Assembly: GCA_046590985.1 (NCBI GenBank)
Contig: JBKJVH010000009.1
Location: 1 to 47,241 of the forward strand
From: Mycobacteriales bacterium
GTDB lineage: Bacteria; Actinomycetota; Actinomycetes; Mycobacteriales; SCTD01
Length of the DNA: 47,241 nt
Reading direction: 5' to 3'
A program made the translations under genes and the position numbers. Shown in pieces: positions 6,309 to 46,499 of this stretch. Under the pieces are notes generated by a model. The model ran no database searches, was not told where the DNA came from, and worked only from the letters and a program-made list of their open reading frames with translations. Each line of letters opens with the position of its first letter. The stretch's first letter is position 1.

Positions 6309-7658
<1,350 letters not shown>

Positions 7659-13836: not shown

Positions 13837-13868
13837 CTGCCGGATCCTGCCACAGGTTCCGCGCCAGG

Positions 13869-18363: not shown

Positions 18364-18402
18364 GGAGCGACAGTAACAACGCGCACTGAGTCGTGGGCCG
18401 GA

Positions 18403-19926: not shown

Positions 19927-20012
19927 GGCGTCCCCCGCCTTGTGTACGTCGGCTGGTCAAAGGTTCCCGCTCCCCCGCCGCACAGGTCAACATTTCCGGC
20001 ATACTCGTCAGC

Positions 20013-20681: not shown

Positions 20682-20861
20682 GCGCCGAGCCCTAGATGCA
20701 CTGCGCCGGGGACTCGTAAGGGTCTGTGCACGACACGCGAGACTCGCAAGGACGTGTGCACCAGGAACGCGCAGGGCAGGAGGCATCGTCGGCCCGTACC
20801 AGGCCCAGGCTGAGCGCGCGCACGTCCACGCGGGGACGTGGCACACCTCGCGAAGGGGACG

Positions 20862-22523
20862 TCAGGCGGGCACGATCGGCAGCAGTACGTGCGACGCGCG
20901 GACCGCGTCGTGGCAGACCGTCTGGTCGGCCACCCGCAGGTCCTCCGGGCCGTCGACGCCGAGGGCGTGGCCGGTGTTGGGGTTGCGGTCGAAGCGCGGG
21001 AAGCTCGCGCTGGTCACGTCGACGCGGACCCGGTGCCCAACGCCGAACACGTTGGACGTCGCGACCAGGTCGACCCGGAGCTCCTCGACCTGGCCCGGGA
21101 CCATCGGCACCTCGCGGTCGCGGCCCTCCCGGAACCGGCAGCGCAGCACCCCCTCGGCCAGCAGCATCGACCGCCCGTCAGGGTGCACGTCGCAGAGCTT
21201 CACGACCACGTCGGTATCGAGGGCGCTGGTCGCGAAGTGCAGCACCACCGTCAGCGGGCCGGTGACCTCGAGCGGTTCCCCCAGCGCCTCCGAGGTGAAC
21301 ACGAGCACGTCCGGGCGAGCCTCGGTCGGGGTCTGGTCGCGCGGGCCCTGGTCGGTCCGCATCATCCGGCCGGGCAGCGAGGTGGGGCCGCCGAGGGTCG
21401 GCGCCGGGTCGGCAGGGTCGTAGCGGAAGCGACTGGGCTCGGCGGCCTGCGGAGCAGCCGGCGAAAGGCCACCGCCGGCGTGCAGGAACCACGGTGTCGG
21501 CACCGCCCGCGCCAGCGGCCAGGACTCCTCGTCCCGCCAGGTGTTCACGCCCTGGACGAAGATCCGCACCGGCCGCTCGTCGTCGCCCTCCCAGAGAGCA
21601 ACCGAGGAACCCCGGAGGTGCCGGTCGAAGTACCGCAGCTGCAGCTCGGTCAGGTCGAGGTCAGCGCTCTCGGGAACGCCCTCGAACCGGTGGTCGGGGT
21701 AGGAGCCGAGCGCCGCCCCGTGCGCCCACGGGCCGATGACCAGCCGCTGCCCGGCGCGGGCTGCCTCGTGAGCCGCCGACACCCGTAGCCGCGAGAAGTT
21801 CTGCAGCGTGCCGGCCAGGAAGATGTCATACCAACCGCCGATGTGCAGGGCCGGCACGGTGATCCGGTCGTAGTGCAGGCTCACCGCCTGCGAGGCCCAG
21901 TGCTCGTCCCAGCACGGATGCGCGAGCCACTCGGCGTAGAAGTTTGCGAGCGGGTTGCCCTGCAGCTCCGGGATGGCGTTGAGGGGCAGGTGCCCGGTCC
22001 AGTCGTCGAGCGGGCCGGAGCGCTTGGGCTCCGCGATGAGCCGTACCCAGAACAGGTTGAAGCCGAGCAGGAACGCACCGCCCTGGAAGATCGAGCCCTC
22101 GTAGGTCTCGCTGCCGGTGATGACCGGCGCCAGCGCCCGAAGGTGCGGTGGCCGGTGCACCGCCCCGAACCACTGCACCGCAGCAGGGTAGGAGCGCCCG
22201 ACCATCCCGACGGCTCCGGTGCACCAGGGCTGCGCAGCGACCCACTCGACGCTGTCGTAGGTGTCGGTGCCCTCGTGCACGAACGGCTCGAACGTGCCCT
22301 CGGAGCGACCCCTCCCCCGGACGTCCTGCACGACCACGGCAAAGCCTGCGTCGGTGGCCCGCTCCAGATCGATGGCCGCCTCCGCGATGACCGCGCGGCG
22401 CCCCTCGTACGGGGTACGGGTCAGCAACGCGGCAGCGGGCTCCTCCGCCTCGGGCAGGTAGACGTCAGCGGTGAGCACCACCCCGTCGCGCAAGGCAACA
22501 GGACACTTTCGGAGAGTACGCAC
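20862..22523 (-). CDS. CocE/NonD-family serine hydrolase
   Basis: LRDGVVLTADVY, RTPY, QDVRGRGRSEG, nucleophile GRSY, GGWYD, IGPWAH, C-terminal jelly-roll domain. Confidence 0.93.
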   Translation of the reverse strand: MRTLRKCPVALRDGVVLTADVYLPEAEEPAAALLTRTPYEGRRAVIAEAAIDLERATDAGFAVVVQDVRGRGRSEGTFEPFVHEGTDTYDSVEWVAAQPWCTGAVGMVGRSYPAAVQWFGAVHRPPHLRALAPVITGSETYEGSIFQGGAFLLGFNLFWVRLIAEPKRSGPLDDWTGHLPLNAIPELQGNPLANFYAEWLAHPCWDEHWASQAVSLHYDRITVPALHIGGWYDIFLAGTLQNFSRLRVSAAHEAARAGQRLVIGPWAHGAALGSYPDHRFEGVPESADLDLTELQLRYFDRHLRGSSVALWEGDDERPVRIFVQGVNTWRDEESWPLARAVPTPWFLHAGGGLSPAAPQAAEPSRFRYDPADPAPTLGGPTSLPGRMMRTDQGPRDQTPTEARPDVLVFTSEALGEPLEVTGPLTVVLHFATSALDTDVVVKLCDVHPDGRSMLLAEGVLRCRFREGRDREVPMVPGQVEELRVDLVATSNVFGVGHRVRVDVTSASFPRFDRNPNTGHALGVDGPEDLRVADQTVCHDAVRASHVLLPIVPA

Positions 22524-22529
22524 CCGGCG

Positions 22530-23621
22530 CTAGTCGGGGCAGGGGCCCGCGGTCCAGGGCAGGACCATCCCCGCGTACTTCCACATGCTCGTCTCGATCG
22601 CGAGCAGCATGACCAGGTCGCCGTTCTTGACGCCGCCGGTCTTCCACACGTGGTCCAGCGCGAGCGGCAACGCGGCCGACCCGGTGGCGCCGACCAGGGC
22701 GAGGTTCTCCATGATCTTCGGCGCGATGGCGACCCATTCGGGAGTGAGCAGGCCGGCCTCCTCGAGCTCATCGGTCATGTAGCTGGCGTTGCCCTCGGGG
22801 ATCACGCAGACGTCCACCTGGTCGGCGGTGATGCCGGCGGCCTTGCACAGCTCGGTGAGCGCTTCGGTCAGCACATAGGGCGTGAACTTGCCGCTCTCCA
22901 CGACGTCGACGTTGAGACGGAACAACTTGGGCTTGGCCAGCTGCTCCATGAGAGGCAGCGAGGTGCCACCGCCGACGACCTGCATGCCGGGCTTCTTGCC
23001 GCCGCCGACGCACGCGATCGAGGAGGCCAGCACGCCACCACCGCCGCTGTCGTCGTCGAAGGCGCGGAGCACCATCGCGCCGGCGCCGTCGCCGAAGCTG
23101 TACATCCCGACCCGCTCGCGCATCCGGATCGACTCCGGGTCCTTCCCACGGAACACCGGCACCAGCAGCGGGCTGATGGTCTCGGTGCCGACCACGACCG
23201 CGGTGCGGTACTGGCCGCGCTCGAGGTACATCCGGGCGACGTCGAGCGCCTCGACCGCGCCTGCACAGCCCGATCGGACGTCGAGGGTGGCGCACTTGCG
23301 CAGCCCCAGCCGGTCCTGCAGCAGCGTCGCCATCGGCGGCAGCAGCACGTCGGGGCTGGCCGTGGAGACCGCCAGGAAGTCGATCTCGTCGGCCGCGATG
23401 CCGGCGCGCGACAGCGCCTGCTCGATGGCCTTGAGCGCCATGTCGCTGTTGCGCTCGCGGTGCTCGCCGGTCTCGGTGTCGACCATCCAGTGCCGGGTCT
23501 TCACCTGGATGCCGTCGAGCACCTCCTCGGGCAGCGGCCCCATCAGCCGGGCGACCTCGTCGTTGCCGATCGGGTCACCGGGCAGGTAGGCGCCGGTGCT
23601 GACCAGCCGGACGGTCGTCAC
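22530..23621 (-). CDS. KAS III (FabH-fold) enzyme with non-canonical catalytic residues
   Basis: STGAYLPG, RSGCAG (Cys), FGDGAGA; the His site reads IPEGNA and the Asn site reads VGATGSA. GTGA overlap with the upstream stop. Confidence 0.85.
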   Translation of the reverse strand: MTTVRLVSTGAYLPGDPIGNDEVARLMGPLPEEVLDGIQVKTRHWMVDTETGEHRERNSDMALKAIEQALSRAGIAADEIDFLAVSTASPDVLLPPMATLLQDRLGLRKCATLDVRSGCAGAVEALDVARMYLERGQYRTAVVVGTETISPLLVPVFRGKDPESIRMRERVGMYSFGDGAGAMVLRAFDDDSGGGGVLASSIACVGGGKKPGMQVVGGGTSLPLMEQLAKPKLFRLNVDVVESGKFTPYVLTEALTELCKAAGITADQVDVCVIPEGNASYMTDELEEAGLLTPEWVAIAPKIMENLALVGATGSAALPLALDHVWKTGGVKNGDLVMLLAIETSMWKYAGMVLPWTAGPCPD

Positions 23622-25981
23622 ACCGGCCCCAGCACGATCGAGATGTTCGTACCACCGAGCGAGAGGCTGTTGATGACGATCGGCCCGCGCGGGGAGTGCT
23701 CGGTGTCCCCGAGCTGCCAGCCGTGCAGCGCGATCGCCGCGGCGACCGCGGCGCCCGCACCGAGCGGCTCCCCGAACAGCGGCCTCGTCGACAGCACCGC
23801 CAAGCCCGTACGGCCCCCGAACATCCTCGTGAGGGCCGCCTGCTCTGCTTTGTCGACCAGGGGATGCCCGCACGCCGAGCCCCACACCGCGACGACGTCG
23901 TCGGCCTTGACGGCCGCCCGCTCGAGTGCGATGGCCATGGCCCGCTCGATGCCGCGACCGTCCGGGTCGACGCCGGCGACCCCGAGCGCGTCAGAGGTGA
24001 TCCCGTAGCCGAGCACTTCACCCAGCACGGTGGCGCCGCGGGCCCGCGCGAGCGAGAGCCGCTCGACGGTGAGGGTGACCCCGGCCTCCGAGAGCCCGAA
24101 TCCTGCGTCGGAGCCCTCCGAGGGGTTGTTGGCCGCCAGGATCCCGATGCCGTCGTAGGCGCCGATCATGGTCTCGGTCAGGGTGTCGGCCGCGATGGCG
24201 ACGATCGCGTCGGCCTGGTCGGTCGCGACCAGGTCGGCGGCGTAGCAGAGCGCCGAGGCGCCGGCGGCGTGGCCCGCGGTGACGGTCGAGGTCGGCCCCG
24301 TCGTGCCGACGAGCATCGCGACCTGGCCGGTGGCCGCGTTGTACACGGTGTTCGGGAAGACAGCCGGGTTGGCACCGCTCGCGCCCTCCTCGATGACGCC
24401 GCGGGCGAACTCCTCCATGCTCTCCATCGGACCGACGGCGGTGCCGAGGATCGGGCCGATCCTGGTCCGGTTCTCGTCGGTGATCTCCAGGCCCGCGGCC
24501 TTCAGCGACTGAATGGTGGAGATGACCGCAGCCAGTCCGAGCCGGTCGACGCGGCGGCGCTGCTTGGGGTTGAGGTAGCTGCTGCCGTCCAGCTCGATCC
24601 GGCCGAGGCTGTGGCCGCCCTCCTCCATCAGGCAGGTACGACCCTCGACCCAGGCGCTCCACAGCGCGTCGATGTCGGGTCCGGCGCAGGTGACGGCGCC
24701 GATGCCGGTGATGACAGCCCGGTCCAGGTCGGGTGTGGGGACCGCGTCGGTCCGCCGACCGGCAGCGCCCATCATGAGCGTGACGTTGGCGCCACCGAAG
24801 GCGAAGTTGTTCGACATCGCGACCGGCATGTCCATCGGGCGAGCGACGTTCGGGACGTAGTCCAGGTCGCACTCGGGATCGGACTCGGTGAAGTTGGCCG
24901 TGGGCGGGGCGATCTGGTTGTGCAGCGCCAGGCTGGTGACGACCGCCTCGACCGCACCGGCCGCACCGAGCAGGTGCCCGATCATCGACTTGGTGCTGCT
25001 GACCGCAACGGTCGCGGCCGCTTCGCCGAGGCCGACCTTGGTGGCCTTCGTCTCGGCGGGGTCGTTCTTGGCCGTGCCGGTGCCGTGGCTGTTGACGTAG
25101 CGGACCTCTTCGGCGCGGACACCGGCGTTGCGGAGCGAGGCCTTGATGGCCCGGCCGGCGCCCAGGCCCTCAGGGTGCGGGGCGGTCGCGTGGTAGCCGT
25201 CCGCCGACAGTCCGTAGCCCAGGATCTCGGCCAGGATCGGCGCGCCCGCAGCCTTCGCGAGGTCCTCGCGGACGAGCACGAGCATCGCGCCGCCCTCGCC
25301 GAGCGACAGCCCGGTGCGGTCCTTGGAGTAGGGCGCCGCGGGGTTGGGCGACAGCGACTCCAGGGAGTTGAAGCCGGCGTAGAGCACGTCGGAGAAGGCG
25401 TCACTGCCCCCGGTGAGGACGGCATCGGCCTGACCGCTCCGGATGAGGTCGAGCGCCAAGCCGATCGCGTTGGCACTCGCCGCACAGGCGGTGTTCACCG
25501 ACAGCACCGGACCCTTGAGGCCGAAGGCGCCGCTCAGCGCCTCGGCCAGCGCCTGCGGGGTGACGAGCATCAGCAACCGAGGGTCGGCCTTGAGGCCGGC
25601 CTTCTGGTCGATCCACCACTTCTCCGCCGACAGCAGGCCGGCGTTGCAGGTGCCGATCGTGACGCCCCAGCGCTCGGCCGGGATCGACGCGCTGATCCCC
25701 TCGGCGGCCCCCATCGCCTCCTCCGCGGCCTTCAGCGCGAAGTCCACGACCGGGTCGCGGAAGTCCGGCGGCCGCCGGTAGTCGTGGGTCGGCAGGACGC
25801 GGTCCTTGACCTCGCCACCGATGCTCGTGCGGTAGCCCTCCATGGACAGGTGCTCGACCTCGCGGATCGCGCCCTTCCCTGCGACGACCGCGTCCCACAG
25901 CTCGGTGGCGGTGGAGCCGTGGCCGGTGATCGCTCCGACGGACGTGACGACGACCCGCGGCGGCGGTGCTTGCTCGGACAC
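23618..25981 (-). CDS. Tandem ketosynthase fusion: active FabF-type KS plus degenerate CLF-like KS
   Basis: Domain 1 has NTACAAS, HGTGT, GHLLG and NNFAFGG. Domain 2 has RAVITGIG, TAGHAAG (Cys to His), WGSACG and FGEPLG. Confidence 0.92.
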   Translation of the reverse strand: MSEQAPPPRVVVTSVGAITGHGSTATELWDAVVAGKGAIREVEHLSMEGYRTSIGGEVKDRVLPTHDYRRPPDFRDPVVDFALKAAEEAMGAAEGISASIPAERWGVTIGTCNAGLLSAEKWWIDQKAGLKADPRLLMLVTPQALAEALSGAFGLKGPVLSVNTACAASANAIGLALDLIRSGQADAVLTGGSDAFSDVLYAGFNSLESLSPNPAAPYSKDRTGLSLGEGGAMLVLVREDLAKAAGAPILAEILGYGLSADGYHATAPHPEGLGAGRAIKASLRNAGVRAEEVRYVNSHGTGTAKNDPAETKATKVGLGEAAATVAVSSTKSMIGHLLGAAGAVEAVVTSLALHNQIAPPTANFTESDPECDLDYVPNVARPMDMPVAMSNNFAFGGANVTLMMGAAGRRTDAVPTPDLDRAVITGIGAVTCAGPDIDALWSAWVEGRTCLMEEGGHSLGRIELDGSSYLNPKQRRRVDRLGLAAVISTIQSLKAAGLEITDENRTRIGPILGTAVGPMESMEEFARGVIEEGASGANPAVFPNTVYNAATGQVAMLVGTTGPTSTVTAGHAAGASALCYAADLVATDQADAIVAIAADTLTETMIGAYDGIGILAANNPSEGSDAGFGLSEAGVTLTVERLSLARARGATVLGEVLGYGITSDALGVAGVDPDGRGIERAMAIALERAAVKADDVVAVWGSACGHPLVDKAEQAALTRMFGGRTGLAVLSTRPLFGEPLGAGAAVAAAIALHGWQLGDTEHSPRGPIVINSLSLGGTNISIVLGPV

Positions 25982-25994
25982 TGTGGTGCTCCCT

Positions 25995-27263
25995 CTAGTG
26001 GGCTTGGGCGAAAATCAGGGCGACGTTCTGGCCGGTGAGCCCTCGCGCAACGGCGAGGGCATGGCGTACGGGGAGGTCCCTACCGGAGCCGGTCACGACG
26101 TTGAGGTCGCACGCCGGGTCGGGTCGGTCGAGGTTCAACGTGGGTGGGACGGTCTGGTGGTGGACGGCGAGGGCCGCGACGGCGGCGTTGAGCGCCCCGG
26201 CACCGCCCATCAGATGGCCGGTGGCGGCCTTGACGCTGCTGACGGCGACGGTGTCCGCGGTGGAACCCAGCACGGTCCGGAGGCCGCGCACCTCACTGAC
26301 GTCCCCGGTGCGGCTGCCGCTGGCGTGCGCAGCGACGTAGTCCACCGCGCCCGCGTCGACCCCGGCCTCGCGCAGGGCCGAGCCGACCGCACCGGCCACC
26401 GCCCGGCCGTCCGGGTTCGGCGTCAACGTGCCGTATCCGTCGTAGCTCGCGCCGTACCCGCAGATCTCGGCGTAGATGCGCGCTCCGCGGGCGAGCGCGC
26501 GCTCGCGCTCCTCGAGCACCAGGATCGCGGCGCCCTCCCCCGGCACGGTGCCGGACCGGCGGGCGTCGAAGGGTCGGCAGGTGCTCTCGCTCAGCAGCCC
26601 GAGCGACTGCAGGTTGGACATGTCCCACCAGTTGATGGGGTCGTCGAACCCGCCCGCGAGGATGACGTCGGCCTCGCCCCGCTTGATGGCGCGGAAGCCC
26701 CGGCCGACAGCGGTGGCGCTGGCGTCGGCCGTACCGGAGAAGTAGGTGTTGGCGCCCTTGAGTCCGTAGGCCTGGGACAGGAAGAAAAGGGAGGCGGCCT
26801 GCAGGCCCTCGACGAAGACGAGCGGGTTGACCGAGCTCTGCGCCTCCTTGCCGAAGCGGTGGATGTCGACGGTGCCGTCGTCATCACGGGAGGCCAGGAA
26901 CGCCTCCTTGAAGTGCGCCACGTCAGCAAGCTCCTTGCTGCTCCCGACGTACGCGCCCGCCCGCTCGGCTTCGTTCTCGGAGATCTCCAGGCCGGCGTCG
27001 GCCGCGGCCGTGAAGCCACCGGCCACCGCGAGCTGGTCGTTGCGCGTCATCATGCGCAACTGCCGGCGGTTCTCCTTGCTGACGTAGTCCTTCGGTACGA
27101 AGTCGGGCACCTCGGCGCCGAGCCCGTTGGCCAGGCTGGAGGTGTCGAACAGCGTCACCGGACCGAGCCCGCTGCGGCCGTCCATCAGGCCGGCCCAGGT
27201 GTCGGTGACGGTCGCGCCGAGACCCGTCAGCAGCCCGACGCCGGTCACGACGACCCGCCTCAT
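25995..27263 (-). CDS. FabF-like ketosynthase lacking the catalytic Cys (CLF-like partner or decarboxylase)
   Basis: MRRVVVTGVG; active-site loop GTADASA (Cys to Asp); both His kept (AHASGS, GHLMG). Confidence 0.88.
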   Translation of the reverse strand: MRRVVVTGVGLLTGLGATVTDTWAGLMDGRSGLGPVTLFDTSSLANGLGAEVPDFVPKDYVSKENRRQLRMMTRNDQLAVAGGFTAAADAGLEISENEAERAGAYVGSSKELADVAHFKEAFLASRDDDGTVDIHRFGKEAQSSVNPLVFVEGLQAASLFFLSQAYGLKGANTYFSGTADASATAVGRGFRAIKRGEADVILAGGFDDPINWWDMSNLQSLGLLSESTCRPFDARRSGTVPGEGAAILVLEERERALARGARIYAEICGYGASYDGYGTLTPNPDGRAVAGAVGSALREAGVDAGAVDYVAAHASGSRTGDVSEVRGLRTVLGSTADTVAVSSVKAATGHLMGGAGALNAAVAALAVHHQTVPPTLNLDRPDPACDLNVVTGSGRDLPVRHALAVARGLTGQNVALIFAQAH

Positions 27264-27634
27264 CGGGGTGCCATCCGGAGCGCCCGTGCGGTGGTCACGG
27301 GCCGGTCGTCGACCTTGACGTCCGCCTTCAGAACAGCTGCGTCGTCGGTCACGCTCTTGAGCTCGACCGTGATGACCATCTGGTCCCCTGGCTGTACGAA
27401 GTGGCGGTAACGGACCTGCTGCGCGCCGACGAGGTGCCAGGGTTTGCCCGTGGACTTCTCGAGCAGCTGGGCCGCGAGCTCACCCATGCTTCCCAGGATG
27501 AGAACCCCTGGCATCACCGGGAAGCGCGGGAAGTGATGGTCCAGGATCTGCAGCGTGCTGGTGATGTTGCGGTAAGCCACGGCCCTGTCGGCCTCGAGGC
27601 TCACGATCCGGTCGAGCCCGGTCCAGTTCTTCAT
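27260..27634 (-). CDS. FabZ-like hotdog dehydratase subunit (His-bearing)
   Basis: LDRI...HHFPRFPVMPGVLILGSMG...FVQPGDQ; ATGA overlaps at both ends. Confidence 0.85.
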   Translation of the reverse strand: MKNWTGLDRIVSLEADRAVAYRNITSTLQILDHHFPRFPVMPGVLILGSMGELAAQLLEKSTGKPWHLVGAQQVRYRHFVQPGDQMVITVELKSVTDDAAVLKADVKVDDRPVTTARALRMAPR

Positions 27635-28887
27635 GCTGCCTTCACCACCAGAGCCGCGTTGGTGCCACCGAACGCGAACGCGTTCACGAACGCCGCGCGT
27701 ACGGGCATCGTGCGGGCGACGTTGGGGACGTAGTCGAGGTCGAGCACCGGGTCCGGGTGGTCGAGGTTGATGGTCGGTGGCACCACGCTGTCGCGCATCG
27801 CGTAGGTCGCGGCCAGCATGTTGAGCGCGGCCGACGCTGCGGTGAGGTGGCCCATCGTGGACTTCACCGAGCTGATCGCGACGCGGTAGGCATCGGCGCC
27901 GAGGACGGCCTTGATGGCGTTCGTCTCGCACAGGTCGTTGCCCGGTGTGCTGGTGCCGTGCGCAGCCACGTAGTCGATGTCGCTGGTCGCGAGCCCCGAC
28001 TCGGCCAGCGCTGCGGCCATGCAGGTGATGGCGCCGCCGCCGTCGGGCGGGGCGTCGGTCATCCGGTAGGCGTTCATGCTCGAGCCGTAGCCGACGACCT
28101 CGCCCAGGATGCGGGCACCACGGCTGACCGCGCTGTCCCAGTCCTCCAGGACGAACGTGGTGGCGCCCTCACCGAGGACGAACCCGTGCCGGGTCTCGTC
28201 GAACGGCTTGGAGGCCTTCGTCGGCTGGTCGTTGAACTCGCTGTTCAGGGCACCCAGCAAGGAGAAGCCCAGCAGGTCGAGCCAGCTCGTCAGGGCGTCG
28301 GCGCCACCGGTCAGCACCATCTTGGCGTCACCGTCCTGGATGATCCGGACCGCTTCGCCGAGGGCGTGCCCGGCGGCGGCGCAGGCGGTGCTCACCGACA
28401 GCACCGGGCCCTCGATGCCTGCCAGCGCAGCGAGTCCGCCGATCCACACCGTGGGGTCACGTTCGAGGGTGCCGCTCGGGCGCGGTTGGAGCAGGTCCCA
28501 CTTGTCGGCTGAGGCGTAGGTCGGGTAGAGCAGGTCGGACAGCTCCTGGATCCCTGGTCGGCCGACGCTCGCGCCCATGCTCAACGCCCGCTCGCTCGGC
28601 GCGTAGGTGCCGGCCGGGATGGCCGCGTCGTCGAGCGCTTCCAGCGAGGCGGCGACGCCGAACGTCGCAGCCCGGCCGAGGCGTCGCGCGAACCGCTTGT
28701 CCGGCAGCCGGTCGCGGACGTCGAAGTCCTTGACCAGCCCCGCGATCCGCACCGGGTAGCTCTCGGCGTCGAAGGTCGTGACAGGCCCGATGCCGCTGCG
28801 GCCGGCGACCAGCGCGTCCCAGGTGGTGGTGGTGTCGTTGCCGCCGGGCGTGACCGCACCCACGCCGGTGATCGCTACCCGGTTCAT
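27631..28887 (-). CDS. fabF: Beta-ketoacyl-ACP synthase II family, catalytically complete
   Basis: STACAAAG, HGTSTPGND, GHLTA, NAFAFGG. Confidence 0.9.
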   Translation of the reverse strand: MNRVAITGVGAVTPGGNDTTTTWDALVAGRSGIGPVTTFDAESYPVRIAGLVKDFDVRDRLPDKRFARRLGRAATFGVAASLEALDDAAIPAGTYAPSERALSMGASVGRPGIQELSDLLYPTYASADKWDLLQPRPSGTLERDPTVWIGGLAALAGIEGPVLSVSTACAAAGHALGEAVRIIQDGDAKMVLTGGADALTSWLDLLGFSLLGALNSEFNDQPTKASKPFDETRHGFVLGEGATTFVLEDWDSAVSRGARILGEVVGYGSSMNAYRMTDAPPDGGGAITCMAAALAESGLATSDIDYVAAHGTSTPGNDLCETNAIKAVLGADAYRVAISSVKSTMGHLTAASAALNMLAATYAMRDSVVPPTINLDHPDPVLDLDYVPNVARTMPVRAAFVNAFAFGGTNAALVVKAA

Positions 28888-29333
28888 GTGGTCACCCCTC
28901 TGGTCAGCATGTCCTGGATCGTCTTGGTGTCCTCGAGGTCGGCAAGGGTGTCTCCGTCGATGAGTGCGCACATGATCTCGGTGGCCCTGAGCACCACCGT
29001 GCCGTCGACGGTGACGGTGCCGGACACGACGGCGACCTCGTCGCCCATCGTGTCGATGGTCCCGTGCAGCTCGAGGACATCACCGGGAACGACGGGGCCG
29101 AGGAACTCCACGTCGGCGATCGACAGCAGCGCGGCCCGCTTCTTCCGGTCGGTGCTGATCATCACCAGCCAGGTGCCGGCCTGGCAGAGCGCCTCGAGCA
29201 CCAGCGGTGGTGGCATGACCGGACCCGCCCCCGAGTCCTCCCAGAAGGTCTCACTCGAGGAGGTGAGCTTGCGCCCCTTGATCCACTCCGACGCCGCGTA
29301 GGAGTCGACCTTGTCCAACAGGTGGAACCGCAT
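28884..29333 (-). CDS. FabZ-like hotdog dehydratase subunit (Glu-bearing)
   Basis: MRFHLLDKV...PVMPPPLVLEALCQ...FLGPVVPGDVL; no HFP histidine. Confidence 0.85.
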   Translation of the reverse strand: MRFHLLDKVDSYAASEWIKGRKLTSSSETFWEDSGAGPVMPPPLVLEALCQAGTWLVMISTDRKKRAALLSIADVEFLGPVVPGDVLELHGTIDTMGDEVAVVSGTVTVDGTVVLRATEIMCALIDGDTLADLEDTKTIQDMLTRGVTT

Positions 29334-29334
29334 C

Positions 29335-29736
29335 TCATGCCTTCCGCCAGGCCGTCAGCGCGGAGGCGATGGCGATACCTCCGCTGTGCGACATGCTCAC
29401 GTCGATCTCGATCAGCCCACGGCGGGTGGCGTAGGCCGCCACCTCGCCCTGGAGCCGCACCTCGGGTCGACCGTTCCGTTCGTTCACGATCTCGACATCG
29501 GTCCAGCGCATCCGTACGCCGAGACCGGTGCCGAAGGCCTTGAGCACCGCTTCCTTCGCGCAGAAGCGGGCCGTCAGGTGGTCAAGACGACGGCGCTTGC
29601 CCTCGCAGTACGCCTGCTCACGTGGCGTGAAGAGCGTGTCCACAACCCCGTCGTCCTCCGTGAGGAGCCGTTCCATCCGCGCTACCTGCTGGATGTCGAC
29701 CCCGACGCGGAGGCGCTGGTCAGGCGCTCCCTGCAC
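29335..29736 (-). CDS. acpS: Holo-ACP synthase (PPTase)
   Basis: VGVDI, FTPREQAYC, ARFCAKEAVLKAFGTG, GRPEV, SMSHS. Start uncertain (GTG 29736). Confidence 0.92.
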   Translation of the reverse strand: MQGAPDQRLRVGVDIQQVARMERLLTEDDGVVDTLFTPREQAYCEGKRRRLDHLTARFCAKEAVLKAFGTGLGVRMRWTDVEIVNERNGRPEVRLQGEVAAYATRRGLIEIDVSMSHSGGIAIASALTAWRKA

Positions 29737-30121
29737 TGGCGCGTTCCATGTACATGCTGGCGAGGTTCGCGACCGTGAAGTGCGTGATGACGTTCTCGGC
29801 CGTGAGCTTGCCCGCGAGGGCGTCGGTGTCGAGCTGCGGCATGACGGTCTTGAGATGCTCGAGGCCCTTGGCGCTGACCAGCTCGCCGGCGTCGCTGAAC
29901 TCCTCATCCGGGATGCCGCCCTGCACGTAGGCGGCGAGGTCGGCAGCCTGGATCTTGATGCCGGTCTTGCGCTCGACGCGGAACAGCACGTCGAGGAGGT
30001 CGATCGACTCCGCTCCCAGGTCTCCCATCAGTGTTGCGTCGGGTGTGGCTTCGTCGTCATCGAGCCCGAGAGCGGCGACGACCGCCTCCTGTACGACGGC
30101 GAGCGTCTCGTCCTGGTCCAT
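29720..30121 (-). CDS. Long acyl carrier protein with internal insertion
   Basis: DLGAESIDLLD attachment motif; 133 aa with an extra segment before the terminal TVANL helix; AGGAGG RBS. Confidence 0.9.
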   Translation of the reverse strand: MDQDETLAVVQEAVVAALGLDDDEATPDATLMGDLGAESIDLLDVLFRVERKTGIKIQAADLAAYVQGGIPDEEFSDAGELVSAKGLEHLKTVMPQLDTDALAGKLTAENVITHFTVANLASMYMERASAGSA

Positions 30122-30169
30122 GCGATGTCCTCCTGTTGCGATCCTGTGAGCAGTGCGTTGCGGCCGGTC

Positions 30170-30943
30170 CTACTTCAGCGGTGCGCCGACCCCGACCATC
30201 GTGCTGACGCCGCCATCGACGACGTACAGCGAACCCGTGACGTACGCGGAGCCGGGGCCGGCCAGGAAGAGGACCACCGAGGCGATCTCCTCCACCCCCC
30301 CGAACCGCTTCATGGGGATCTGCTTGAGGATCCCCTTCCCGCCGTCCTTCTCGAGCAGCCCCTCCACCAGGTCGGTGGGCGAGAAGCCCGGCAGGACGGC
30401 GTTCACCCGGACGCCGAACCGTGCGAACTCCACGGCGGCACACTGGGTGAAGGCGTTGATCGCGCCCTTGGACGCGGCGTAGTTCGACTCGCCGATCCAG
30501 CCGCGCTGGCCCATGACGGAGGACACGTTCACGATGACCCCGTCGCGGTTGAGCATGAACTGCTCGAGCGCGGCCTTGGAGCAGTTGAACGTACCGCCGA
30601 AGTTGACCTTCATGACGTCGAGCCAGTCGCCCGGCGCCATGTTGTAGATGAGGCCGTCCTTGGCGATGCCGGCGTTGTTGACGAGCACGTGCAGGTCGCC
30701 GAGCTCAGCAACGGTCTGCTTGACGGCCGCCTCGGCCTGGTCGTACTCCGACACGTCCCCGGCGATGGCCACCGCCCGACCGCCGGCGGCGACGATCTCG
30801 GCCACCACCTCGTCGGCCTGGTCCTTGCGCGAGCGGTAGTTCACCCCGACCGCGGCGCCCTCTGCGGCGACGGCCTTGCAGATGGCTCGGCCGATGCCAC
30901 GGGAGCCCCCCGTGACGAGTACAACACGTCCTTCGAGCTGCAT
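30170..30943 (-). CDS. fabG: 3-oxoacyl-ACP reductase (SDR)
   Basis: TGGSRGIG, VNNAGI, NVSS, YAASK, VNAVLPG. Confidence 0.92.
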   Translation of the reverse strand: MQLEGRVVLVTGGSRGIGRAICKAVAAEGAAVGVNYRSRKDQADEVVAEIVAAGGRAVAIAGDVSEYDQAEAAVKQTVAELGDLHVLVNNAGIAKDGLIYNMAPGDWLDVMKVNFGGTFNCSKAALEQFMLNRDGVIVNVSSVMGQRGWIGESNYAASKGAINAFTQCAAVEFARFGVRVNAVLPGFSPTDLVEGLLEKDGGKGILKQIPMKRFGGVEEIASVVLFLAGPGSAYVTGSLYVVDGGVSTMVGVGAPLK

Positions 30944-30953
30944 ACCGCCCCCT

Positions 30954-31014
30954 GGAAGGTGGACCTTCCGCCGACCTGGCGGAGCCTCTCAAGCCTTACG
31001 CGGCGGATCGTAAG
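30954..31014. promoter_or_regulatory. Inverted repeats in the fabG/ABC divergent region
   Basis: GGAAGGT-gg-ACCTTCC (30954-30969), TCCGCC-N5-GGCGGA and CTTACG-N8-CGTAAG (30995-31014). Confidence 0.35.
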
Positions 31015-31110
31015 CGCACGATGGACATGAGCGCCACTGCCTGTCGAGTAAGAGACATCCGCGCCGCCTACACTCGGCCAGCCTCATCCGAGACAGGACG
31101 GGAGAACGCC

Positions 31111-33570
31111 GTGACGGTCGACGAAGAACCGATGCCTCCGGCAGCGAACGCGGAGCCGCAACCAGAGGCGGACCAACTGCGCTCAGTGCCGTTGTTCACC
31201 CGCGTGGACAGCCCCAGCCTGCTCGCCGACGTGGCAGCGCGGATGCGCCTGGTGTCGCTGGCGGCCGGCGGGACGGTGTTTCGCGAGGGTGACATGAGTA
31301 CCGATTTCTACCTCGTGCGCTCGGGCACGGTGGGGGTCTCCACCGACCTCGGCGGCCGGGTCCGACAGCTCGCGCGGGTTGGCCCGGGGCAGTTCTTCGG
31401 GGAGATCGCACTGCTCGGCGGCGGCCGCCGGTCGGCCACGGTGACCGCCACGACAGACGTCGAGCTCTGGGTGCTGTCGGCGCAGGCGTTCGCGCAGCTC
31501 CAGCTGTCGGCTCCCGCCCTGGCAGCCCAGGTGGCGACCGAGGCGCAGCAGCGCAAGCAGCACTCGAAGACCCTGGCGTACGAGGTGCAGCGCTACCACC
31601 TCGCCGACCTGCTCGAGAGCCGCGCCTCCCTCACCCTCGGCCGGGACGCGAGCAACACCGTCACGCTGGAGTCCCCCCAGGTGTCGCCCTTCCACGCCGT
31701 CATCGGCCGCGACGGCACGGGCTACACGCTGACCGATCTCGACAGCACCACCGGCACGTTCGTCAACGGCAGCCGCATCCACACCGCCCAGCTGGCCGAC
31801 GGCGACGAGCTCTGGATCGGCGACGAGCGGCTGGCCTACGACGCCGGCCAGCTCGCGCAGGTCAACGAGTCGCGGGGCGTGCGGATCGACGCCCGCGGGC
31901 TCTGCCGCGATGTCAAGGGCGGCAAGCGGATCCTGCACGACATCGACCTGACGATCCTGCCCGGCGAGCTGGTCGCCCTCGTCGGCGGTTCGGGGGCCGG
32001 CAAGTCGACCCTGCTCGACGCGCTGTCCGGCGTGCGGCCCGCCACCTCCGGCGGCGTCCTCTACGACGGCCGCGACTACTACGCGAACCTGCCCTTCTAC
32101 CGCAAGACCCTGGGCTACGTGCCGCAGGATGACATCATCCACACCGACCTGCCGCTGCGCCGCACCCTGCTGTACGCCGCCCGACTCCGGCTGCCGCTCG
32201 GGACCCCCCGGGCTGAGCTCGACACCCGGGTCGACGCCGCGCTGGAGCAGCTCGCTCTCACCGGCCAGGCCGATGTGCAGGTCGCGAAGCTCTCGGGCGG
32301 CCAGCGCAAGCGCTGCAGCATGGGCGTTGAGCTACTCACGCAGCCGCGCGCCTTCTTCCTCGACGAGCCGACCTCGGGGCTCGACCCGGCAACCGACGCC
32401 CAGATGATGCGGCTGCTGCGCCGGATCGCGGACGTCGGCGACACCGTCCTGGTCACCACGCACGCCACCAAGAGCGTGATGCTGTGCGACAAGGTGGTGT
32501 TCCTGGCGCGCGGCGGGCACCTTGCCTTCGTCGGCCCTCCGGCGCGCGCGCTGGCCTACTTCGGCACCTCGTCCTTCGACGAGATCTACGACCGGCTGGC
32601 CGACGAGGACACGCCCGAGGAATGGGCCGAGCGGTTCCGCACCTCGCCCGACATGGACACTGTGCGTGAGCAGCAGGTCGCACAACCGACACCCACGGTC
32701 GGCGACACCAGCGGCGGGGGGCACCGCAGCCCGCTGCCCGCGCTCCGCGAGGCCTTCCGTCAGTTCCGGGTGCTGACCGCCCGCACCACCGACATCAGCG
32801 TCCACAACCCGGCGGTCCTCATGCCGTTGATCGTCCTACCCCTCGTCAGCACGCTGCTGCTGCTGGCGCTGTTCCCCTCGAACGTCTTCAGCGACAAGAG
32901 CCACCTGTCACGGCCGCTGCAGGTCATCTTGCTGCTGACCTTCACGACGTTCCTGAGCGGCCTGCTGACGGGGATCCTGGCGATCGTCAAGGAGCTGCCC
33001 ATCTTCCTCCGAGAACGCATGGTCGGGGTCGGCGTGACGCCCTACCTGCTGTCGAAGGCGACGTTCCTCGGACCGGTCGTGGCGCTGCAGGCCGCCGTCA
33101 TGGTCGGCATCCTGCGCGTCACGAACCGGCTGCCCGCCGACGGCTGGTCGTTCTACGGACCGCTACTGCTGACCACGGTGCTCGTGGGGCTGGCGGCGAT
33201 GGCCGCGGCCCTGTTCACCTCGGCGGTCTCGCGCACACCCCAGCAGGCGACCGATTTCCTGTCGATCTGGATCATGCCCCAGATGCTCTTCTCGGGCGCC
33301 CTGTTCGCCGTCCCGACGATGACGATCGTGGGGCGGCTGTTGGCCGACATCACGGTGGTGCGCTTCGCCTTCGAGGCCAACGCCGAGCACACCGGGCTGC
33401 TGAAGCTCTTCCGTGACTCGGGCACACCGGCAGGCCAGTCCCTGACCAGCGACTACGGCTCCAGCTTCACGATCGACCGGCTGACGCACTGGGGGATCCT
33501 GGTGGTGTTCATCGTCGTCCCGCTGGTCGCGGCCCGGGTGATCCTGGCGAAGCGCGCCCAGACCCGCTGA
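31111..33570 (+). CDS. cNMP-FHA-ABC ATPase-ABC2 membrane exporter (Rv1747-like architecture plus cNMP domain)
   Basis: FFGEIALLGGGRRSATV; LGRD...VSPFHA...GTFVNG; GGSGAGKS, LSGGQ, FLDEPTSGLD; hydrophobic C-terminus. GTG 31111 follows GGAG. Confidence 0.93.
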   Translation: MTVDEEPMPPAANAEPQPEADQLRSVPLFTRVDSPSLLADVAARMRLVSLAAGGTVFREGDMSTDFYLVRSGTVGVSTDLGGRVRQLARVGPGQFFGEIALLGGGRRSATVTATTDVELWVLSAQAFAQLQLSAPALAAQVATEAQQRKQHSKTLAYEVQRYHLADLLESRASLTLGRDASNTVTLESPQVSPFHAVIGRDGTGYTLTDLDSTTGTFVNGSRIHTAQLADGDELWIGDERLAYDAGQLAQVNESRGVRIDARGLCRDVKGGKRILHDIDLTILPGELVALVGGSGAGKSTLLDALSGVRPATSGGVLYDGRDYYANLPFYRKTLGYVPQDDIIHTDLPLRRTLLYAARLRLPLGTPRAELDTRVDAALEQLALTGQADVQVAKLSGGQRKRCSMGVELLTQPRAFFLDEPTSGLDPATDAQMMRLLRRIADVGDTVLVTTHATKSVMLCDKVVFLARGGHLAFVGPPARALAYFGTSSFDEIYDRLADEDTPEEWAERFRTSPDMDTVREQQVAQPTPTVGDTSGGGHRSPLPALREAFRQFRVLTARTTDISVHNPAVLMPLIVLPLVSTLLLLALFPSNVFSDKSHLSRPLQVILLLTFTTFLSGLLTGILAIVKELPIFLRERMVGVGVTPYLLSKATFLGPVVALQAAVMVGILRVTNRLPADGWSFYGPLLLTTVLVGLAAMAAALFTSAVSRTPQQATDFLSIWIMPQMLFSGALFAVPTMTIVGRLLADITVVRFAFEANAEHTGLLKLFRDSGTPAGQSLTSDYGSSFTIDRLTHWGILVVFIVVPLVAARVILAKRAQTR

Positions 33571-33572
33571 CC

Positions 33573-35009: not shown

Positions 35010-35099
35010 GGCGCTTCCCCCAGGTTGGCTCGTCCCGTCGCACGATGGCACAGTTCCAGCGCCCCGTGAAAGGTCGCGTAGTGGGGCGTGGTGCCCATC

Positions 35100-39548: not shown

Positions 39549-40789
39549 GCGCCCGCGCCGTCATCACCGGGTTGGGAGTGGTCGCGCCGAACGGCACAGG
39601 CGTCGACGCCTACTGGGCCGCCACCCGCAAGGGGGTCAACGGCATCAAGCGCATCTCACGGTTCGACCCCGACAAGTACGCGACAAAGGTGGCGGGTGAG
39701 GTCGAGGGCTTCGTGGCCACCGACTACATCGACCGGCGCCTCACGGTGCAGACCGACCTGTGGACCTGGATGGCCCTGGCCGGCGCCAAGCTGGCCTTCG
39801 AGGACGCCGCGTTCGACCCGGCCACGTTCGACCCCTACAACCTCTCCGTCGTCACCGCGAGCTCCTCGGGCGGCAACGAGTTCGGCCAACGGGAGATCCA
39901 GAGCCTGTGGGCGAAGGGCTCGAAGTACGTAGGCGCCTACCAGTCCATCGCCTGGTTCTACGCGGCGACGACCGGACAGCTCTCCATCAAGCACGGCATC
40001 AAGGGCCCCTGCGGGGTCGTCTGCTCCGAGCAGGCCGGCGGCATCGACGCCATCGCCCAGAGTCGCCGCATCCTTGCTCGCGGCGAAGCACATGCTGTCG
40101 TGACGGGCGGCACGGAGGCACCCATCGGCCCGTACGCGCTGGCTTGCCAGCAGGCCAGTGGCTTGTTGAGCCAGGTGGACGACCCCGACCTGGCGTACCG
40201 GCCCTTCTCCGAGGGCGCCCAGGGGTACGTGCCGGGTGAGGGCGGGGCGATCCTGCTCCTCGAGGACCTCGAGCGGGCCCAGGCTCGCGGGGCGCAGATC
40301 TACGCAGAGGTCATCGGGGACGCCGCGACGTCGGACGCCTTCCACCCCACACTTCCCAACCCGGACGGCAGGCAGTACGCGAGGGCCATCACATTGGCGC
40401 TCGCCGACGCCGGCATCGATCCCGACCAGGTCGACGCCATCTTCGCTGACGGCATGGGCATGCCCGACGCCGACGCCGCCGAGGTCACGGCGCTCCACGA
40501 GGTGTTCGGGGGACGGCCCTCGGCGCCGGTGACAGCGCCCAAATCGATGGTGGGCCGGCTCTACGCGGGCGGCGCCTCTCTCGATGTGGCGACGGCGGCA
40601 CTGGCCGTGCGCGACAACTTCCTGCCGCCCACCATCAACGTTGGCAAGCAGTCAGCGCAAGCAGACATCGACCTGGTGACGCAGGGCAGGGACCTCACCC
40701 TGAAGACGGTGCTCGTGTGCGCCCGGGGCACCGGCGGGTTCAACAGCGCACTGGTCTTGCGCAAGCTGGACAAGGCCGCCAGCAGTTGA
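39545..40789 (+). CDS. Type II PKS chain length factor (KS beta)
   Basis: ATGA-coupled to KS alpha; SEQAGG (Cys to Gln), [19 protein letters not shown]. Confidence 0.97.
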
Positions 40790-42414
40790 CGGTCGCCGCG
40801 CCCGAGCTCTTAGCCGGCCTCGCCCCGGATGCCGTCACCGACATCCTTGCGGGAGCCAGTTCCCGCTCGTTCGCGGCCGGCGAGGCGCTGTGCCACGAGG
40901 GTGAGGTCGCAGCCAGCGTCTTCGTACTGCAACGGGGGGCTGCCGAGGTGCTCGTGGGGGGTGGCGACCATCGGCTCCGACGACTGCGCCGAGGCGACGT
41001 CGTCGGTGAGATCTCACTGCTCACCGGCGCGCCGCGATCGGCCACAGTCCGCGCCAGCGTTGCCACAGAAGCCCTCGAGATCGGACGGGACACGCTGACA
41101 AGGGCGCTGGTCGCGCATCCGCAGCTCCTGGTCAACCTCAGTCAGATCCTCAGCCAGCGGCTCGCGCGGGCGCACGTCGAGCAGGTACCGGCCGGACGAG
41201 GCGAGGCAGTCGGGCTGATCCTGGGGCGCTCCGCCCAGGGGGCGCTCGGTGAGATCCTGAAGGCGGTCGTCGCAGCAACCCCGCAAGCTGTGGCAACCAT
41301 CGGCCTGGTGCCGGGTATGCCGTCCGCGACGACCGCAACCAGCGCGGATGCGGCAGCGGCCGCGCTCGACGACCTGCTGGCCGAACACGGCTTCGTCGTC
41401 GTGGTGGCGACACCTGACACTCCGGACCTCTCCACGCTCGTGGCCCAGCTCGACCGTACGTTGGCCGTCGGTACTGCCGACGAGGCGACCGCGATAGCGG
41501 ACCGGCTGGGACCTGCCGCCGGCGCCGAGATCGTCGACCTGGAACGACGAGGCGTGGCTTGGCTGGGCCGCCATCTCACTCGGACGAAGCTGGGGCTGGC
41601 GCTGGGCGCCGGCGGGGCAAAGGGCTACGCGCACGTCGGCGCCCTGGCCGTCCTCGAGGAGGCCGGCTACACCGTTGATGCGGTGTCCGGCAGCAGCATC
41701 GGGGCGGTGGTGGGCGCGTGCATCGCCATGGGGCAGCGCAGCGCCGAGATCGACCTCACGTTACGCAAGCGCTTCTCTCCCGAGGTGGTGGCAGCGGTGT
41801 TCACGCTCTCCTTCTCGGGTACGTCCTCGGGCTACGCCACGATGGAGGCGCTCACACGCGACCTGTGCGGGACTCTCGACGTCGGCGACCTGGGGATCCC
41901 CTTCGTCGCCCTCGCAGCCGATCTGAACACTCGACTACCCGCCGAGATGTCGTCCGGCCCGCTCGCCGAGGCCCTGCTCGCCTCGACGGCACTGGCGGGC
42001 CTGTTTCCCCCGTTCCTCCGCGACGGCCAGCGCCTGGTGGATGGGCTGGCCCTGGTGCCCGTTCCCGTGGGGGCAGTGTCGGACGCCGGCGCTGATGTGA
42101 CGGTGGCGGTGAACCTGATGAGCCGGGATGTGCTGGAGGCCTGGCCTGGCGAGGACCCACCGGCACCACCCGGCGGAAGGCAGCGGATGCTCGAGACGCT
42201 GCTTGAGGTCATGGACCTCACCCAGCTCGACGCGAGCGTCCGCAACGCCGCACAGGCCGATGTTGTGGTCACGCCCCGCTTCGGGCCCTGCACGTGGCGC
42301 GACTTCCACCTGGCTGACCGGTTCACCGCCGCCGGTCGCGACGCCGCGACCGGCTCCCTCGAAGCTCTACGAACGCTGGCCAACCCGATGCACCAAGGAG
42401 AAGGACATGGCTGA
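40786..42414 (+). CDS. cNMP-binding domain plus patatin-like phospholipase
   Basis: VGEISLLTGAPRSATV; GAGGAKG, GSSIG, VDGL. The TTG start overlaps the CLF stop (TTGA). Confidence 0.9.
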   Translation: MTVAAPELLAGLAPDAVTDILAGASSRSFAAGEALCHEGEVAASVFVLQRGAAEVLVGGGDHRLRRLRRGDVVGEISLLTGAPRSATVRASVATEALEIGRDTLTRALVAHPQLLVNLSQILSQRLARAHVEQVPAGRGEAVGLILGRSAQGALGEILKAVVAATPQAVATIGLVPGMPSATTATSADAAAAALDDLLAEHGFVVVVATPDTPDLSTLVAQLDRTLAVGTADEATAIADRLGPAAGAEIVDLERRGVAWLGRHLTRTKLGLALGAGGAKGYAHVGALAVLEEAGYTVDAVSGSSIGAVVGACIAMGQRSAEIDLTLRKRFSPEVVAAVFTLSFSGTSSGYATMEALTRDLCGTLDVGDLGIPFVALAADLNTRLPAEMSSGPLAEALLASTALAGLFPPFLRDGQRLVDGLALVPVPVGAVSDAGADVTVAVNLMSRDVLEAWPGEDPPAPPGGRQRMLETLLEVMDLTQLDASVRNAAQADVVVTPRFGPCTWRDFHLADRFTAAGRDAATGSLEALRTLANPMHQGEGHG

Positions 42415-45885: not shown

Positions 45886-45886
45886 G

Positions 45887-46369
45887 TCACATCCCCTCCA
45901 TCCGGCCGGAGCGCACGTCATAGCGGAAGCCGTGCACCTCCAGACCCTCGGGCAGCAGCGGCGAGGTCGCGACCGTAGCCACGTCCAGCCACAGCGCGTG
46001 GTCGGCGTCCTCAGCCGTCATGAAGTCCTCGTCGGTCGTCGCGCCGACCTGCTCGACGAGCGCCTGCAGGTCCTCATTCCCGTGCTTGGCCATCCCGCAG
46101 TCCGTGTGGTGCACCACCGCGACCACGCGCACCGCCATGGCGAGGGTCGACACCACCAGCGACCTGATCACGTCGTCGTTCACCCGGCCGCCGGCATTGC
46201 GCATCACGTGCATGTCCCCCGCGGCCAGCCCGAACATCGCGAGCGGGTCGATGCGCGCATCCATGCAGGTGACCACCGCCAGGTGCCGGCGCGGCGGGCT
46301 CGCCAGGGCAACGCCGGCAAACCCTGAGACATGCGCGACGTTCCCGGCCAGCAGCTCCTCCCGGGTCAT
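45887..46369 (-). CDS. Beta-class carbonic anhydrase
   Basis: Zn ligands TCMDAR and HHTDCGM; RNAGG. Confidence 0.93.
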   Translation of the reverse strand: MTREELLAGNVAHVSGFAGVALASPPRRHLAVVTCMDARIDPLAMFGLAAGDMHVMRNAGGRVNDDVIRSLVVSTLAMAVRVVAVVHHTDCGMAKHGNEDLQALVEQVGATTDEDFMTAEDADHALWLDVATVATSPLLPEGLEVHGFRYDVRSGRMEGM

Positions 46370-46470: not shown

Positions 46471-46499
46471 GCGCCGTCACGATGACGAGAGGGGGCGCG

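Follow-up and report, generated by a model that had tools for sequence, protein, structure and literature searches.

A stretch of 47,241 nucleotides of the Mycobacteriales bacterium assembly GCA_046590985.1 (contig JBKJVH010000009.1, hereafter the window) holds a gene island with two exporters of unrelated classes that carry the same regulatory head, a cyclic nucleotide-binding (CNB) domain joined by a conserved linker to an FHA domain. The first is an ATP-binding cassette (ABC) exporter, a predicted ABCG-fold half-transporter with the head at its N-terminus, and the second is an MMPL exporter of the resistance-nodulation-division (RND) class with the head at its C-terminus. The two genes lie in one island on opposite strands, 14 kb apart. 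We consider it likely that the head was copied from the sub-lineage of the ABC transporter onto the MmpL3-like pump of the island, and that both pumps export the product of the island under the control of their heads.

The shared head

The ABC and MMPL proteins align over the head only, some 230 residues, and are collinear through the linker. In BLASTP residues 53-278 of the ABC protein match residues 746-971 of the MMPL protein with 105 of 227 positions identical (46%), 2 gaps and an E-value of 3e-49, and the DNA of the two heads is 65% identical across about 475 nt. An initial annotation of this DNA had proposed a collinear cNMP-linker-FHA cassette on two unrelated transporters, which is confirmed by this match together with the profile search described below. 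The motifs quoted there are found in both frames, LRSVPLF, GQFFGEIALLGG, HLADLLESRASLTLGRD, PQVSPFHAV, STTGT and GDELWIG in the ABC frame (31021-33570, plus strand) and LRRVPLL, GQLFGEVALLGG, NLATLLQDRPELRLGRD, PQVSRFHAV, SRVGT and GDEVWIG in the MMPL frame (13869-16811, minus strand), the latter falling outside the interval 31111-31860 under which the annotation was filed. Judged from these alignments, the shared head is a case of true homology, far beyond chance.

The extent of the head can be read from a profile of the ABC family from which the window ABC was left out, MMPL residues 739-972 aligning with positions 14-246 of its 819 at 221 bits. By the bounds of this alignment the shared unit is the entire regulatory head of the family, from its first conserved residues to the junction of FHA domain and ATPase. 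A separate joining of the CNB and FHA domains to the MMPL protein was considered and rejected, as the profile match crosses the linker and stops at the head boundaries of the family. A likeness of the MMPL tail 'EPVGAR' to the start of the family ATPase, 'EPRGIRID', falls outside the profile alignment and is too weak to use. A search of the source assembly, which is 78% complete, gave 13 matches at E<=1e-3, of which only two, those in the window genes, are full-length and cover the CNB and the FHA half together.

Pfam recognises cNMP_binding (78-160), FHA (205-267), ABC_tran (305-452) and ABC2_membrane (580-786) in the ABC reading frame of 849 aa, for which the 819-aa gene call (P0291) begins at 31111. 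In an AlphaFold2 model of the whole protein (pLDDT 90.8, pTM 0.88) the FHA strands continue directly into the ATPase. The top fold matches of the model are ABCG2, ABCG1, ABCG5/G8 and ABCG25, with TM-scores by target of 0.70-0.86, and the body, that is the ATPase and membrane domain, is predicted to have an ABCG-type fold. The MMPL protein has two MMPL (PF03176) stretches (E 9.3e-69), then cNMP_binding (770-856) and FHA (897-960). Its body scores 435 bits against the NCBIfam MmpL3 model NF052608, which has a cut-off of 1400, and thus falls short of an equivalog of MmpL3, the trehalose monomycolate exporter.

The usual carrier of the head

A protein search with the window ABC gave thousands of candidates, and CNB (PF00027), FHA and ABC domains are present together in 118 of the 120 homologues listed, the remaining two being shorter (685 and 721 aa). 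Full-length identity of the window ABC to 119 listed relatives is 45-67%, P0156 standing at 67% and the others at 45-57%. The family has the chain cNMP_binding, FHA, ABC_tran and ABC2_membrane in some 800-850 aa, which the window ABC fits; examples are P0156, P0339 (named 'Egibacteraceae bacterium') and members named Thermomicrobiales, Thermoleophilaceae and Acidimicrobiia. By its domain chain the window ABC is a new member of this family, which is widespread, known by sequence and unstudied. A literature search on the domain combination, which did not cover supplementary files, found no relevant publication on CNB-FHA-ABC transporters, and one on MmpL, CNB and FHA together, with the same limit, found none that combined them.

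Of 10 representatives from an exhaustive HMMER search that were scanned, seven are CNB-FHA-ABC, one has RCC1 repeats added to this chain, one is RCC1-CNB-FHA and one is CNB-FHA alone. The RCC1-bearing proteins form a sub-group of the family in which 300-500 residues of RCC1 stand before the head (P0025, P0300, P0302, P0303 and P0305, with further entries P0316, P0317, P0321, P0323 and P0333), whilst P0044 has RCC1 repeats, CNB and FHA but no ABC part, perhaps because it is truncated. Other sensor-bearing transporters are also seen among the representatives, with four FHA domains on a major facilitator superfamily protein and three CNB domains on a type-I ABC exporter (P0129 and P0070).

On the MMPL side the head was found in none of the 119 listed homologues of the MMPL body (53-72% identity, 698-798 aa, PF03176 only). 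No MMPL domain was found in 10 further long CNB- or FHA-rich representatives, and among 17 matches to the MMPL head the sole MMPL protein was the query itself. The 80 loci around MMPL orthologues had no further gene of the window cluster in common, save three weak matches to short-chain dehydrogenase/reductase (SDR) genes. As the head is present in 118 of 120 listed ABC homologues and in 0 of 119 listed MMPL homologues, the transfer went from ABC to MMPL, and the reverse direction is ruled out by the same distribution.

Donor of the MMPL head

The closest outside protein, P0156, has 828 aa, is encoded on a 4.7-kb metagenome contig and has a body 72.5% identical to that of the window ABC, the two bodies being sisters with a support of 100 in the ABC-body tree. 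The heads of the window ABC, the window MMPL protein and P0156 form a clade in a careful maximum-likelihood (ML) tree of 38 heads (UFBoot/SH-aLRT 99/95), and this clade is recovered at 96 and 98 in quick trees of 62 and 46 rows. With this support the donor is placed in the ABC sub-lineage of the window ABC and P0156. The grouping of each head with distant outside homologues, which would have spoken against the initial annotation, is not what is seen, as both stand in one clade of three members with a single outside head.

Within the sub-lineage there are three candidates for the donor, namely the neighbouring ABC gene, its ancestor or a P0156-like second copy. The initial annotation had favoured duplication within the cluster, in which the neighbouring ABC's own head would have been copied after the split from P0156 and the two window heads would be closest relatives, and we regard this as doubtful. 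It is in keeping with two genes 14 kb apart in one island, with their common three-member clade and with the finding of no second head-bearing ABC in the assembly. The end branches of the 38-head tree are long for the ABC (0.41) and MMPL (0.69) heads as against P0156 (0.22), and the window ABC head has changed faster than its body (0.41 vs 0.17), both of which would be expected after a duplication; in P0156 head and body are equal (body 0.23). However, the MMPL head stands with P0156 in the ML tree (94/86, below the level starred in the tree, and 85 in both quick trees), and the MMPL head is closer to P0156 (53.5%) than to the neighbouring ABC head (46%), the ABC head itself being 53.7% identical to P0156. 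Long-branch attraction should favour the duplication, yet the trees do not recover it. Constraining the window heads as sisters costs 6.8 lnL, which in the approximately unbiased (AU) test gives p 0.054 and no formal rejection, so that sisterhood of the two heads is disfavoured and not rejected. What stands of the proposed duplication is the homology of the heads and the descent of the MMPL copy from the ABC lineage; a simple duplication with sister heads goes beyond what the trees support.

It is quite possible, without being probable, that the donor was a second ABC of the P0156 kind, a paralogue or a transferred gene that has since disappeared or belongs to the 22% of the genome missing from the assembly, or that the copying is older than the split between the window ABC and P0156. 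The ML topology agrees with this, a constraint holding the ABC head and P0156 together costs 5.3 lnL and is not rejected (AU p 0.169), the genome is incomplete, and the congeners searched have nothing that corresponds to the island, so that gene flux is plausible. Against it, no such gene is found in the assembly, the support for the pairing of MMPL head and P0156 lies below the starred level, and P0156 is encoded on a short contig. A scan of metagenome contigs with generic patterns from the three-head alignment returned at least 67 loci, which encode ordinary proteins with CNB or FHA domains, and no full head was among the matches listed.

It is very improbable that the fusion arose as a chimera in assembly or that the contig was mis-binned. 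The source is a metagenome-assembled genome of 259 contigs and the island was seen in none of the congeners searched, both of which are what an artefact might produce, but the reading frame and codon bias are continuous through the junction and the contig is ordinary in composition (GC 0.699 vs 0.709 for the genome; 29th from the bottom among 78 contigs by tetranucleotide profile, r 0.995). The junction is spanned, without a single difference, by a 671-nt contig of run X1 (14329-14999), although X1 is possibly the source sample and the bridge is for this reason not independent of the source reads. Run X2, from another study, has near-identical 151-nt pieces on both sides of the junction and no bridging contig, and no RNA data were listed for 13800-15400. 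An independent fusion of the same kind in a distant genome, described next, also argues against an artefact.

Occurrence in relatives and a second capture

No match spanning both head domains was listed in 40 relatives (22 of them congeners; G030 is unpublished), and 400 genomes of the class gave no full head at E<=1e-22. Within the genus the MMPL protein has paralogue matches only (51-54%), and no DNA syntenic with 13800-33600 was found in 15 congeners (25 relatives searched, including G030); many of the relative genomes searched are incomplete. The genus-wide paralogue is present in the source genome itself (G000:C228:3261-10438), where it is 51% identical to the window MMPL protein and lies about 1.2 kb from an opposite-strand frame of 1034 aa in which a class III cyclase domain is recognised; a CNB protein, truncated where the contig ends, is about 4 kb away. 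The congeners G017 and G020 have a CNB match within 2 kb of the same paralogue.

In a sample of 400 genomes of the phylum, head matches were found, besides the source genome, in two genomes only, G615 with two heads on one contig and G639 with one ABC. G615 shares only its phylum with the source; its head-bearing ABC is 100% identical to P0339 and 50.5% identical to the window ABC. Adjoining this gene is one for a protein of 1225 aa with N-terminal CNB and FHA domains and C-terminal MMPL repeats, the MMPL body of which is 27% identical to the window MMPL protein over 162 residues. The two G615 heads are 63-67% identical to each other, and in the 46-row tree they are sisters (95) inside a four-row clade (100), far from the window trio (98). 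Branches starred in the tree force two separate origins of MMPL-borne heads. The C-terminal MMPL fusion of the window is a new variant, and on the evidence of the trees the fusion in G615 is an independent capture.

The G615 fusion resembles that of the window in that a family head sits on an MMPL/RND pump near a head-bearing ABC and beside a homologous core of ketosynthase (KS), FabA, acyl carrier protein (ACP) and SDR genes. It has an N-terminal head, tandem genes and heads of 63-67% identity, where the window fusion has a C-terminal head, genes 14 kb apart on opposite strands and heads of 46% identity. Its core runs in the window order, with SDR 68%, ACP 65%, FabA 61%, KS 57%, FabA 55%, KS 52% and a fused KS/KS-like protein 58-59% identical (G615:C48:5490-7811), and the same contig also has a desaturase (35-37%) and a KASIII (50%).

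G573, a complete genome of the same phylum, has both biosynthetic sub-clusters of the window at 50-70% identity (G573:C1:380000-439999), including the fused KS (62-63%, C1:406289-408616), SDR (70%), acyltransferase (64%), a second KS pair, a cyclase, a cupin and a CNB-patatin protein (45%). An acyltransferase gene is there divergent from the SDR gene, at the site that the ABC gene occupies in the window. The fused KS/KS-like protein of 787 aa is kept at 58-63% across the three distant genomes and would be a handy marker of this type of island.

Functional residues of the heads

The residues of the heads were surveyed in an alignment of 132 family heads. The phosphate-binding cassette of CNB domains, as in CAP and PKA, has Gly-Glu followed by Arg-Ser/Thr/Ala-Ala, and phospho-threonine-binding FHA domains such as Rad53 FHA1 have Gly-Arg, Ser-x-x-His and Asn. 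The Gly-Glu of the cassette is invariant in the family (132/132) and its Arg is present in 105 of 132 heads, including the window ABC and P0156. The ABC head (FGEIALLGGGRRSATV) keeps both the Glu and the Arg of the nucleotide contact. In the MMPL head (FGEVALLGGARGAATV, GGARGAATV) the Glu is kept, the Arg is replaced by Gly and the next residue is Ala, a departure from the canonical cassette, and an Arg stands one position before the canonical site.

The FHA residues are widely kept in the family (Gly 131, Arg 127, Ser 119 and His 131 of 132), and Gly-Arg and Ser..His are kept in both window heads. Of the replacement of the FHA Asn in the 'STNGT' turn, to which the initial annotation had drawn attention, it can be said that it is real in both heads (STTGT, SRVGT) but common, 50 of the 132 heads being without the Asn and 82 having it; the ABC head has Thr at this site and the MMPL and P0156 heads have Val, and P0156 also has Ser at the Arg site. 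As all three members of the clade are without the Asn and P0156 without the Arg, it is uncertain whether this small clade reads phospho-threonine in the canonical way, and such binding may be in the course of erosion there.

Judging by these residues, the two heads are no longer equivalent, the ABC head keeping the canonical cNMP contacts and the MMPL head having lost a key Arg. The placing of both exporters under one regulatory module, as first suggested, is too strong for a MMPL head with Gly at the site where the ABC head and 105 of 132 family heads have Arg. With this loss the MMPL head is likely to have weak nucleotide binding or none, and may act mainly through its FHA domain or through docking.

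One might go further and regard the MMPL head as a decayed remnant that no longer senses, a pseudo-receptor serving as a structural tail or nearing loss, in which case the pumps would not be co-regulated. The changes of Arg to Gly, of the next Ser/Thr to Ala and of the FHA Asn to Val, on the longest branch of the clade (0.69), are of the kind that decay would leave. It is nonetheless unlikely, since the frame has stayed open for 240 codons in a gene with a GC content at third codon positions (GC3) of 0.92, the family profile is matched over its full head length at 221 bits, and the cassette Gly-Glu is retained together with Gly-Arg and Ser..His of the FHA domain, with 27 of 132 family heads also being without the Arg and an Arg standing one position earlier in the MMPL head.

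The gene island

The source is the metagenome-assembled genome of a soil actinobacterium, 3.46 Mb in 259 contigs, about 70% GC and 78% complete. The island is rich in genes of fatty-acid and polyketide biosynthesis, and its features are collected in Table 1. The core between the exporters encodes an S15-family hydrolase, a KASIII-like protein, the fused KS/KS-like protein (787 aa), KS, a FabA-like protein, KS, a second FabA-like protein, ACP and an SDR ketoreductase, the ABC gene being divergent from the SDR gene. A second biosynthetic set in the window consists of a cupin, two KS, an ACP and an SRPBCC cyclase, and there are also an FAD monooxygenase, a methyltransferase and subunits of acetyl-CoA carboxylase. 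Of the ten CNB-type matches in the source assembly, four sit in these 47 kb. A stand-alone GAF-domain protein adjoins the carboxylase genes. Contigs C68, C62 and C154 of the genome have further copies, 87-94% identical, of a 53-nt stretch between the methyltransferase and S15 hydrolase genes (20709-20761), which may be a small intergenic repeat.

Table 1. Features of the window, with positions, strand and the basis of each assignment
Feature	Position	Strand	Basis or content
ABC exporter, predicted ABCG-fold half-transporter with N-terminal CNB-FHA head	31021..33570	+	ORF, Pfam, AlphaFold2, fold matches
ABC regulatory head (P0003)	31171..31863	+	CNB 31252-31500, conserved linker, FHA 31633-31821
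MMPL/RND exporter with C-terminal head copy, 980 aa	13869..16811	-	Single open frame, GC3 0.92, Pfam
MMPL body, residues 1-734	14610..16811	-	MmpL3-like, under equivalog cut-off
Putatively captured head on MMPL (P0004)	13890..14582	-	CNB 14244-14504, FHA 13932-14123
Biosynthetic core between exporters	20862..30943	-	Pfam, NCBIfam; syntenic in G615 (50-68%) and G573 (50-70%)
Fused KS/KS-like, 787 aa	23618-25981	-	Pfam: 2 stretches each of ketoacyl-synt N and C
Two FAD desaturases of the CrtI family, immediately upstream of MMPL gene	16840..19926	-	Pfam Amino_oxidase; NCBIfam crtI_fam below cut-off
Acyltransferase, malonyl-CoA:ACP type, directly downstream of MMPL stop	12889..13866	-	Pfam Acyl_transf_1 E 3.9e-41
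CNB-patatin phospholipase, third cNMP-sensor protein of the island	40717..42414	+	Pfam; 45% homologue in G573 cluster
CNB-patatin phospholipase, fourth cNMP-sensor protein of the island	44149..45921	-	Pfam; CNB 37% identical to ABC head
Precursor-supply set	5748-9846, 33573-35051, 45887-46507	-	Biotin carboxylase, biotin carboxyl carrier protein, carboxyltransferase, pyruvate kinase, beta-carbonic anhydrase

Comparison with known systems

Compared with the rest of the CNB-FHA-ABC family, the window ABC is a member from which nothing essential differs, apart from a head that has changed faster than its body and an FHA domain without the Asn. Beyond the family there is a likeness to Rv1747 of Mycobacterium tuberculosis, an FHA-bearing ABC exporter positively regulated through phosphorylation by PknF (PMC3138270, PMC8339232). 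As there, the window ABC has an FHA domain N-terminal to an ABC-2/ABCG-type exporter. A structure of the Rv1747 FHA domain, 6cah, is among the matches of its FHA domain (E 1.9e-7), those of EmbR and GarA scoring slightly better. Unlike Rv1747, which has two FHA domains, it has a CNB domain at the place of the further FHA, one FHA domain and no FHA Asn. The Rv1747 type is marked by two FHA domains and a kinase in the operon, and here there is one FHA domain and none of the 11 Pkinase matches of the genome is on this contig. The analogy with Rv1747 and PknF that had been drawn at first holds for an FHA domain on an ABCG-like exporter, and fails for the number of FHA domains and for the kinase, no gene for which was found in the window.

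The presence of both an RND and an ABC transporter at a lipid or polyketide locus recalls the export of phthiocerol dimycocerosates, in which MmpL7 and DrrABC are both involved (PMC11539658, PMC8427324). The window ABC differs from DrrABC in being a fused half-transporter. MmpL7 and DrrABC are not known to carry CNB-FHA heads. A further parallel is found in Rv2564 and Rv2565, presumably a pair of ABC ATPase and patatin-type esterase like that of the window island. They are neighbouring genes, both with PF00027 (PMC4886424). Unlike the window island, they have neither an FHA domain nor an MMPL partner.

The heterodimer prediction and the proposed role

Prediction of a heterodimer of the two heads (ABC 51-281 with MMPL 742-975) gave a score of 0.00, without controls, which weighs neither way.

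The likely history given at the outset builds on the homology of the heads, the direction of transfer, the membership of one clade, the second capture and the states of the residues. Ligand binding, phospho-threonine reading, substrate and co-regulation are inferred. A complete CNB-linker-FHA head is fused in frame to the C-terminus of a MmpL3-like RND exporter, which would be cytoplasmic if the topology is that of MmpL3, and both heads would then be cytoplasmic, before the ATPase in the ABC protein and after the last membrane helix in the MMPL protein. ABCG-fold and MmpL3-like pumps move hydrophobic molecules, and both pumps may carry the hydrophobic product of the island in a two-pump route of lipid export. 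The heads would act as post-translational gates, with cAMP or cGMP acting through the CNB domain and Ser/Thr-kinase signalling through the FHA domain, and copying of the head to the partner pump would allow both to respond together. After loss of the Arg the MMPL copy may be insensitive to nucleotide or weaker, relying on its FHA part. Control by cNMP fits with the two CNB-patatin lipases of the same island.

Several observations weigh against this history and model. The source genome is 78% complete, and no cyclase, Ser/Thr kinase or phosphatase gene was found in the window, the 7 cyclase-domain and 11 Ser/Thr-kinase (Pkinase) matches of the genome lying on other contigs. None of the five genomes with the closest MMPL orthologues (69-72%) has a full head, and G639 has a head-bearing ABC and no MMPL gene on that contig. 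In G573 no ABC, MMPL or desaturase match was found in the 60 kb examined, nor a full head genome-wide with this query, and as it has the core with no such pumps matched, the biosynthetic core does not need these pumps. The Gly at the cassette Arg site of the MMPL head, the uncertain phospho-threonine reading of the clade and the pairing of the MMPL head with P0156 count on the same side. It can be added that both islands of this type with a head-bearing ABC also hold an MMPL protein with a copied head and that the island without the ABC has no such pump, the number being very small.

A more general and tentative suggestion is that the CNB-FHA head is a portable gating cassette that has repeatedly been copied from an ABCG-type lipid exporter to a partner MMPL/RND pump. 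If this is true, Actinomycetota that are only distantly related would have captured it on two or more occasions in homologous biosynthetic islands, with the head at opposite termini, and both legs of export would answer directly to one second messenger or kinase signal. Together with the CNB-patatin lipases this would make a transcription-independent, cNMP-gated unit to make, export and remodel a lipid.

Regulatory domains on transporters are known, as with the FHA domains of Rv1747, and the movement of a whole two-domain head between unrelated classes of transporter is unusual. Two independent captures beside homologous cores are stronger support for a partnership of ABC and MMPL pumps than gene neighbourhood alone, and point to cyclic nucleotides controlling the export of lipids or polyketides directly and post-translationally, a mode of regulation that is barely explored in bacteria. 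The two fusions may also be regarded as natural chimeras for how one sensor could gate both an ATP-driven and a proton-driven pump.

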